NCBI RefSeq assembly: GCF_044324875.1
Contig: NZ_CP172185.1
DNA: 64,000 nucleotides
Reading direction: 5' to 3' (one strand)
From: Escherichia coli
GTDB lineage: Bacteria; Pseudomonadota; Gammaproteobacteria; Enterobacterales; Enterobacteriaceae
Both the position numbers and the translations under genes were made by a program. Below are positions 57,274-57,630 of this stretch, in pieces. The notes below the pieces were generated by a model. It made no database searches, had not been told where the DNA came from, and saw nothing but the letters and a program-made list of their open reading frames with translations. Each line of letters begins with the position of its first letter. Position 1 is the first letter of the stretch.

Positions 57274-57348
57274 TCTAAAAACTAGTATTAAGACTATCAC
57301 TTATTTAAGTGATACTGGTTGTCTGGAGATTCAGGGGGCCAGTCTAAA
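57274..57348. mobile_element. IS2 terminal fragment
   Basis: CTAAAAACTAGTATTAAGACTATCACTTATTTAAGTGATACTGGTTGTCTGGAGATTCAGGGGGCCAGTCTA matches the IS2 end as I recall it; only about 75 bp present. Confidence 0.5.
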
Positions 57349-57394
57349 AAGCAATAAATACAGAAAGTTACTCTGGCGTTATGGGGTAATGCAA

Positions 57395-57630
57395 AGTATG
57401 AGACGCAGAGGGAATTGCCTGGATAATTCGCCGATGGAAAGAGTCTTTCGCAGCCTTAAAAGTGAATGGTTTCCGAAAGGTGGTATGGTGATTTTAGCCA
57501 TGCGGTACGCGATATAAACCAGTGGATTAATGGTTATTATAACGTTTATCGACCTCACACGAACAACGATGGTTTACCGCCTTGGCTACATGAAGAAAAG
57601 TGGAAACAGGTTATCCCGGTGTCCTGATTT
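57395..57630 (+). pseudogene. IS3-family transposase OrfB C-terminal remnant (frameshifted)
   Basis: ...[15 protein letters not shown]... and ...[24 protein letters not shown]... in two frames. Confidence 0.5.

Follow-up and report, generated by a model that had tools for sequence, protein, structure and literature searches.

The interval of about 370 bp between the end of an ISCro1 element and a serine-protease autotransporter gene is made up of fragments of two insertion sequences (ISs), IS2 and ISKpn37, and is very probably non-functional wreckage left by nested IS insertions and then by an ISCro1-associated rearrangement. It lies in a stretch of 64,000 nucleotides of Escherichia coli DNA (hereafter the window), which represents a genomic island; positions 32290-63800 are collinear with and 99.9% identical to the island of Br_112_kylling, one extra IS aside, and strain 135 is nearly collinear with the whole window. 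Taken together, the unmatched flanks of ISCro1, the IS2 stub and the ISKpn37 tail would form a precise scar of the IS-associated deletion or fusion by which a tellurite-resistance (ter) segment was linked to a protease-AbgT segment. The IS2 stub keeps one end and no transposase gene, and the ISKpn37 tail keeps one end and the frameshifted last quarter of orfB, so that neither can move or encode anything. The practical value of the debris is small, and as a scar of island assembly it holds no new biology.

The IS2 stub (57273-57346, minus strand) corresponds to nt 74 to 1 of IS2 and is identical to the IS2 of the F plasmid at 73 of 74 positions (E = 2e-33). The original prediction, made from the sequence alone, had placed a 75-bp IS2 terminus here; its identity was borne out, while the real fragment is 74 bp long and starts at 57273 instead of 57274. 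IS2 is a 1331-bp member of the IS2 group of the IS3 family, and the IS2 and ISKpn37 pieces thus both belong to one family. The left terminal repeat of IS2 starts TAGACTGGCC, as does that of the stub, which ends exactly at IS2 nt 1. What persists is the left terminal inverted repeat and the adjacent promoter/operator region; orfA, orfB and the right end are gone. A complete mobile copy would have two ends, orfA/orfB and a 5-bp target duplication; the stub is a fragment and, unlike full IS2, this solo end cannot transpose. A self-BLAST of the window revealed no other IS2-identical sequence. A diverged, frameshifted IS2-like orfA remnant is present at 28355-28835 on the minus strand (NCBIfam 'IS2 repressor TnpA', E = 3.5e-15) and is unrelated to the stub.

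The ISKpn37 tail (57347-57644, plus strand) comprises nt 955-1253, the last 298 bp of the 1253-bp element, and preserves the final 93 codons of orfB along with the right inverted repeat. It is about 97% identical to the intact ISKpn37 of pKPC_CAV1099, with 8 mismatches and 1 gap by our own count from an alignment (303/319 bases, E = 3e-144) that also takes in the chance-similar IS2 end. Alignment to intact ISKpn37 placed a 1-nt deletion at 57484/57485, where one T of GGTGGTTATGG is missing and the remainder of orfB is frameshifted. When the frame was conceptually corrected, the 93-aa product matched positions 289-365 of the 369 in the NCBIfam IS3 transposase model (E = 2.6e-24) and Pfam rve_3 (E = 6e-9); with only the last 93 codons left, and these frameshifted, the rve/DDE core can be assigned to a family but is not an active domain. 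The right inverted repeat, GGTGTCCTGATTTTGTGCTCAACTACA, spans 27 bp (57618-57644) with TG...CA termini, encloses the orfB stop codon TGA (57625-57627) and matches, by eye, 20 of 27 positions of the left repeat reconstructed from LH50-c. A frameshifted OrfB tail of the IS3 family had been predicted here, and this proved correct except for its end, which had been set at 57630 and lies 14 bp further on, at 57644. In the 100%-identical stretch of Br_112_kylling, PGAP annotates a frameshifted, N-terminally truncated 'integrase core domain' pseudogene equivalent to window 57332-57627. Identical sequence is thus already annotated as pseudogenes in RefSeq, and the debris is known and ordinary. The expectation that the fragments would match IS references significantly held for both, with coordinate corrections of 1-14 bp, and the E-values of the nucleotide and NCBIfam/Pfam matches ruled out chance similarity for either piece.

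Both ends of ISKpn37 could be fixed through LH50-c, where nearly the whole element persists, split only by ISEc8. The 1253-bp element reconstructed from this genome matches intact ISKpn37 end to end at 96.8% on many plasmids of Klebsiella, Enterobacter, Citrobacter and Raoultella, and these full-length matches stand in differing flanks, which defines both ends of the element. The window remnant and the intact copies from many plasmid contexts share their final base, both closing with the terminal ...CTACA of an element common on Klebsiella, Enterobacter and Citrobacter plasmids. In contrast to intact ISKpn37, the window remnant has lost the first 954 bp, which LH50-c keeps, and its orfB remainder is frameshifted. 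Since LH50-c retains nearly all of ISKpn37, the full element was once present beside the protease gene. The 1-nt deletion is common to the AR_0085 and LH50-c junction variants, the two that were checked, and is therefore probably old. Directly adjoining the left end of ISKpn37 in LH50-c is an IS911-like orfA/orfB remnant; a target duplication is not obvious there, and the locus may hold a still older layer of IS nesting. Prompted by the IS911-like orfA left of ISKpn37 in LH50-c, we also considered window 57645-57666 as an IS911-type end; the similarity was weak by eye and is not claimed.

Beyond the ISKpn37 end lies a 100-bp flank (57645-57744) and then the stop codon (57745-57747, minus strand) of the protease gene. 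This gene (57745-61620, minus strand) encodes an S6-family serine-protease autotransporter (SPATE) of 1291 aa, identical in an exact-sequence look-up to WP_395762519.1, which carries only generic names in public sources. The protein matches Pfam Peptidase_S6 (E = 5.6e-92), has GDSGS at residue 257 and ends in an aromatic residue (...IRYSF); residues 53-830 are strongly Hbp/Tsh-like (PDB Hbp 1wxr, 1262 bits), and the Pfam autotransporter beta-domain model gave no match at E <= 1e-3. A motif scan showed that the EVNNLNK passenger/barrel cleavage site is absent, NN pairs occurring only at residues 56, 147, 290, 392 and 973. Sha likewise has no EVNNLNK site (PMC6592367). Identity with Sha was not supported by length (1291 versus 1302 aa), gene G+C content (50% versus 44%) or context, nor was identity with TagB/TagC, for which only the genomic context (the yjdI-yjdK island) was compared. 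Within the flank, RNA folding predicts an 8-bp G+C-rich hairpin at 57691-57714 with no U tract on the strand of the protease gene, and likeness to other S6-peptidase loci ends at 57691. Strain 135 has a second ISKpn37-tail/autotransporter junction elsewhere in its chromosome (NZ_CP080260.1, 797420-797720), where the annotation of the gene goes no further than beta-barrel domain protein.

On its other side the debris is bounded by ISCro1, an IS66-family element of 2698 bp without its insert, which occupies 51929-57272 on the plus strand and is so named by PGAP in identical loci. ISCro1 owes its first description to Citrobacter rodentium ICC168, in which it is the most expanded IS (PMC3072379), and ISCro1/IS66-family elements have been found at a hot spot of IS integration upstream of afaA in ST131 (PMC8764528). 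The window copy has the tnpA-tnpB-tnpC order and GTAA...TTAC ends of the family, with 99-100% identity over TnpB and TnpC (tblastn); the tnpC stop codon lies at 57240-57242 and the right inverted repeat ends ...GAGCCGCTTAC at 57272. The ends of the element are established because perfect 8-bp duplications flank it in AR_0085 (ATAAAGAC), PK8276 (TTTTCACG) and F1022 (CATTTTTC). In contrast to these copies, that of the window, like that of Br_112_kylling, is flanked by GATTTTCA on the left and GTCTAAAA on the right, which do not make up an 8-bp duplication; its tnpC is inactivated by an IS21-family element (about 53496-56143) with its own 4-5 bp TTAT duplication, and it stands only as a junction between truncated segments. 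The unmatched flanks argue for a rearrangement junction as opposed to a simple insertion, and by this sequence evidence the window ISCro1 marks a deletion or fusion junction.

The segments on either side bear this out, the right end of ISCro1 truncating IS2 and its left end truncating the ter cluster. Over the last 229 bp before the element (51700-51928), which cover the 3' end of terW and the flank beyond it, identity is 100% to IncHI2 plasmids (pSA186_MCR1, for example), as against only about 96% to other chromosomal ter islands, and the ter module of the island therefore looks plasmid-derived. In pSA186_MCR1 the ter cluster runs past GATTTTCA into further vWA and TerD genes; this continuation is absent from the window, where the module looks to have been cut short by ISCro1. 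Deletions independent of any IS could in principle have truncated IS2 and ISKpn37, with ISCro1 merely abutting the remains, and such illegitimate events would fit with the absence of a target duplication around ISCro1 here and with the fact that a simple insertion was not seen. They would have had to end, to the base, at the right end of ISCro1 on one side and at its left end on the other, and IS2 nt 1 is precisely the base at which IS2 meets ISKpn37. The IS2/ISCro1 junction, GTCTAAAA included, moreover recurs base for base elsewhere as a bona fide insertion, and we consider this explanation extremely unlikely.

Nesting logic suggests the order of events, with ISKpn37 first, then IS2, ISCro1 and the deletion or fusion. 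ISKpn37 would have landed at a point 100 bp past the protease stop codon, oriented so as to read towards the gene, and its orfB would later have lost one T. IS2, inverted, would then have entered orfB of ISKpn37 at nt 954/955, and ISCro1 would have inserted into IS2 at nt 67-74, duplicating GTCTAAAA, which is IS2 nt 74-67. A deletion or fusion involving ISCro1 would have followed, with removal of IS2 nt 75-1331, ISKpn37 nt 1-954 and the distal ter genes, either because a second ISCro1 copy lay downstream of terW and the two recombined homologously, or because the window copy transposed intramolecularly into that site; a single ISCro1 would remain, with the truncated ter cluster on one side and the IS2 stub on the other. 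The IS21-family element would have split tnpC later, in the window's own lineage.

A structure like that expected before the deletion was found by predicting the missing left junction (IS2...GTCTAAAA followed by the left end of ISCro1), which E. coli EC21GDE043 matches as a single contiguous stretch. The whole nest is intact there, in prophage surroundings, and runs IS2 nt 1331 to 67, GTCTAAAA, ISCro1, GTCTAAAA, IS2 nt 74 to 1. The IS2 of EC21GDE043 differs from the window stub at several bases and so probably reflects a separate insertion at this site, not the actual ancestor. A full IS2 inside this ISKpn37 copy was present in no genome of the collection. The other predicted parent would have ISCro1 as a simple insertion between two copies of GATTTTCA downstream of terW, reading from the right end of ISCro1 into GATTTTCATACATAAGAAAG, and was found in 0 of 5426 complete genomes; the recombination and intramolecular transposition routes are for that reason not separable.

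The junction was then compared among complete E. coli genomes. The ISKpn37 tail, the 100-bp flank and the 3' end of the protease gene are present at >=99% identity in 26 of 5426, and are interrupted by IS1414 in 2 further ones. The protease gene was thus carried by about 28 of the 5426 genomes, most of them from chickens, and always together with the ISKpn37 tail. The sequence to the left of the tail varies by lineage, different ISs having cut the tail at different points, and the comparison proposed with the original prediction thus returned an IS-varied left side and a constant ISKpn37 right end beside the protease gene. The window type, with the IS2 stub, was seen in 5 genomes and in GPEC1040, which in addition carries ISEc8 inside the stub (duplication TCTAAAAA) and IS1414. 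Ten genomes are of the F1022 type, with an inverted ISEc8 at 57375 that itself contains ISCro1. An inverted ISEc23 at position 57432 defines the AR_0085/PK8276 type (2 inspected), ISCro1 being nested there at two different sites. LH50-c (1 genome) has ISEc8 at about nt 812 of ISKpn37 with an 8-bp duplication, GGTTCAGC, and CP033635 (1 genome) has ISEc23 at ISKpn37 nt 951 together with IS1414. Individual inspection covered all but about ten of the carriers. The ISEc8 of GPEC1040 had been considered as an independent truncation of IS2 and this was rejected, as it is a simple insertion, 1 bp from the ISCro1 end, in a structure of the window type. The breakpoints in the ISKpn37 tail (57347, 57375, 57432, nt 812 and nt 951) thus sort the carriers of a rare, mostly poultry-associated protease gene into structural lineages.

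The constancy of the right side could also be read to mean that the protease and AbgT genes form a present or former composite or IS-bounded transposable unit, with the right end of ISKpn37 as its fixed boundary and the debris as the remnant of a delivery vehicle, in line with the acquisition by ISs put forward in the original prediction. In each of the roughly 28 carriers that end does have the same position, to the base, 100 bp away from the stop codon, whatever lies to its left; the AbgT gene is always found on the other side of the protease gene, and only 46 bp separate the IS end from the point where likeness to other S6-peptidase loci is lost. A single IS end is present, however; self-BLAST of the window detected no matching ISKpn37 copy or inverted repeat on the AbgT side, and the ISKpn37 flanks in LH50-c show no evident duplication of 3-4 bp. 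The constancy would be accounted for just as well by one insertion in an ancestor of all carriers, and we regard a mobile protease-AbgT unit as improbable.

The recurrence of insertions at these sites raises the question of target preference. IS66-family elements were found within IS2 nt 59-74 in several settings: ISCro1 at GTCTAAAA in two IS2 variants (the window type and EC21GDE043), ISEc8 at TCTAAAAA in GPEC1040, and ISCro1 at IS2 nt 59 in a plasmid of bR_120_Kylling, where it adjoins another S6-peptidase gene. The last 440 bp or so of ISKpn37 have received IS2, ISEc8 (two sites), ISEc23 (two sites) and IS1414 (two sites). We tentatively raise the possibility, which we hold to be less than even, that IS66-family elements prefer the AT-rich segment inside the left end of IS2 (nt 59-74, ...ACTAGTCTAAAAACTAGTAT...), and that the dead ISKpn37 tail has acted as an 'IS trap', with at least six independent insertions.

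Nested remains of the same three kinds of IS are also found on the F plasmid, where an ISKpn37-like remnant, an IS66-like remnant, IS2 and IS3 lie about 2 kb from an autotransporter gene. In contrast to the window, IS2 there lies inside the IS66-like element, which in turn interrupts the ISKpn37-like element some 70 bp upstream of the position that IS2 occupies in the window, and the neighbouring autotransporter is unrelated to that of the window. The ISKpn37-like tail of the F plasmid is 81% identical to window 57200-57645, a span that includes the IS66 end, and this divergence between the two nests indicates independent events. Derivation of the window arrangement from that of the F plasmid by deletion was rejected on the same grounds, the nesting order being different and the identity about 81%.

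The original prediction had further held that the autotransporter was probably acquired or rearranged through IS-mediated events. Rearrangement gained support from the ISCro1 copy without a duplication and the truncated ter cluster and IS2 on its two sides, while acquisition by ISs did not. A nearly identical ter-ISCro1-protease segment lies in tyrosine-integrase islands at two different chromosomal sites, adjoining tRNA-Pro in Br_112_kylling and ycjD in strain 135. Acquisition of the island therefore looks integrase-mediated, and the ISs appear to account for internal junctions only.

The debris is without any sign of function. A consensus scan found 2 promoter-like sites, against 1.1 +/- 1.5 expected from shuffled sequence, which is at background level; the same type of scan detected no terminator in the debris or in the 3' flank of the protease gene, and an Rfam scan of the debris gave no match. 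The left end of IS2 carries IS2's own promoter, which here would fire towards tnpC of ISCro1, in antisense, and the debris lies 3' of, and convergent with, the protease gene. It could thus be envisaged that the IS2 end or the ISKpn37 tail had been co-opted to provide a promoter, a terminator or an antisense RNA for the protease gene or for tnpC. The background number of promoter-like sites and the negative terminator and Rfam scans speak against such a role, the hairpin of the protease gene itself (57691-57714) lies outside the debris, and left of 57432 other carriers have unrelated IS sequence, so the stretch is not conserved with the gene. Co-option is, on this evidence, very unlikely.

With regard to the IS content of the window as a whole, it had been claimed that at least seven IS families left remnants, and this figure could not be sustained. 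NCBIfam and Pfam scans of all transposase-like ORFs, and of 120 stop-to-stop ORFs taken from every unannotated stretch of the window, detected four families (IS3, IS21, IS66 and IS110); in the unannotated stretches Pfam matched only IS66_C (2 members) and rve_3 (1 member). Roughly ten IS species are represented in the window, by about a dozen separate copies or remnants, and the figure of seven may have counted species or copies. The IS3 family is represented by the ISKpn37 tail, the IS2 stub, the IS2-like orfA remnant, two IS1203-like copies and an OrfB tail at 10838-10969. To the IS21 family belong two 2648-bp ISSso4-like copies and a 1954-bp element at about 30284-32237, with a 340-aa IstA and a 260-aa IstB, which we take to be IS100-like from its size and gene lengths. 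The IS66 family comprises ISCro1, a second element at about 8150-10700 and two C-terminal fragments. IS110, a family of RNA-guided recombinases, is present as a fragment with an N-terminally truncated transposase (29021-29791); within 29021-32237 this fragment adjoins an IS1203-like IS3 element, which is split by the 1954-bp IS21-family element.

The two 2648-bp copies (1928-4575 and 53496-56143) are identical and lie in inverted relative orientation. The copy at 53496-56143 is the simple insertion in tnpC of ISCro1 flanked by TTAT, and that at 1928-4575 has no duplication and replaces about 230 bp found in strain 135. The two IS66 C-terminal fragments, which had been predicted at 6199-6372 and 7987-8127, proved to be real by Pfam, tblastn and PGAP. 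The first (6199-6372, plus strand) matches Pfam DDE_Tnp_IS66_C (E = 3.6e-15), is 46% identical by tblastn to residues 467-520 of ISCro1 TnpC and is a PGAP pseudogene in strain 135. The second (8015-8149, minus strand; 7987-8127 in PGAP) matches the same Pfam model (E = 8.8e-19) and residues 471-515 of ISCro1 TnpC (tblastn, E = 2e-5). These two fragments point towards each other across sitA and a sitB stub (6199-8149), which are left stranded from the iron/manganese transporter locus sitABCD.
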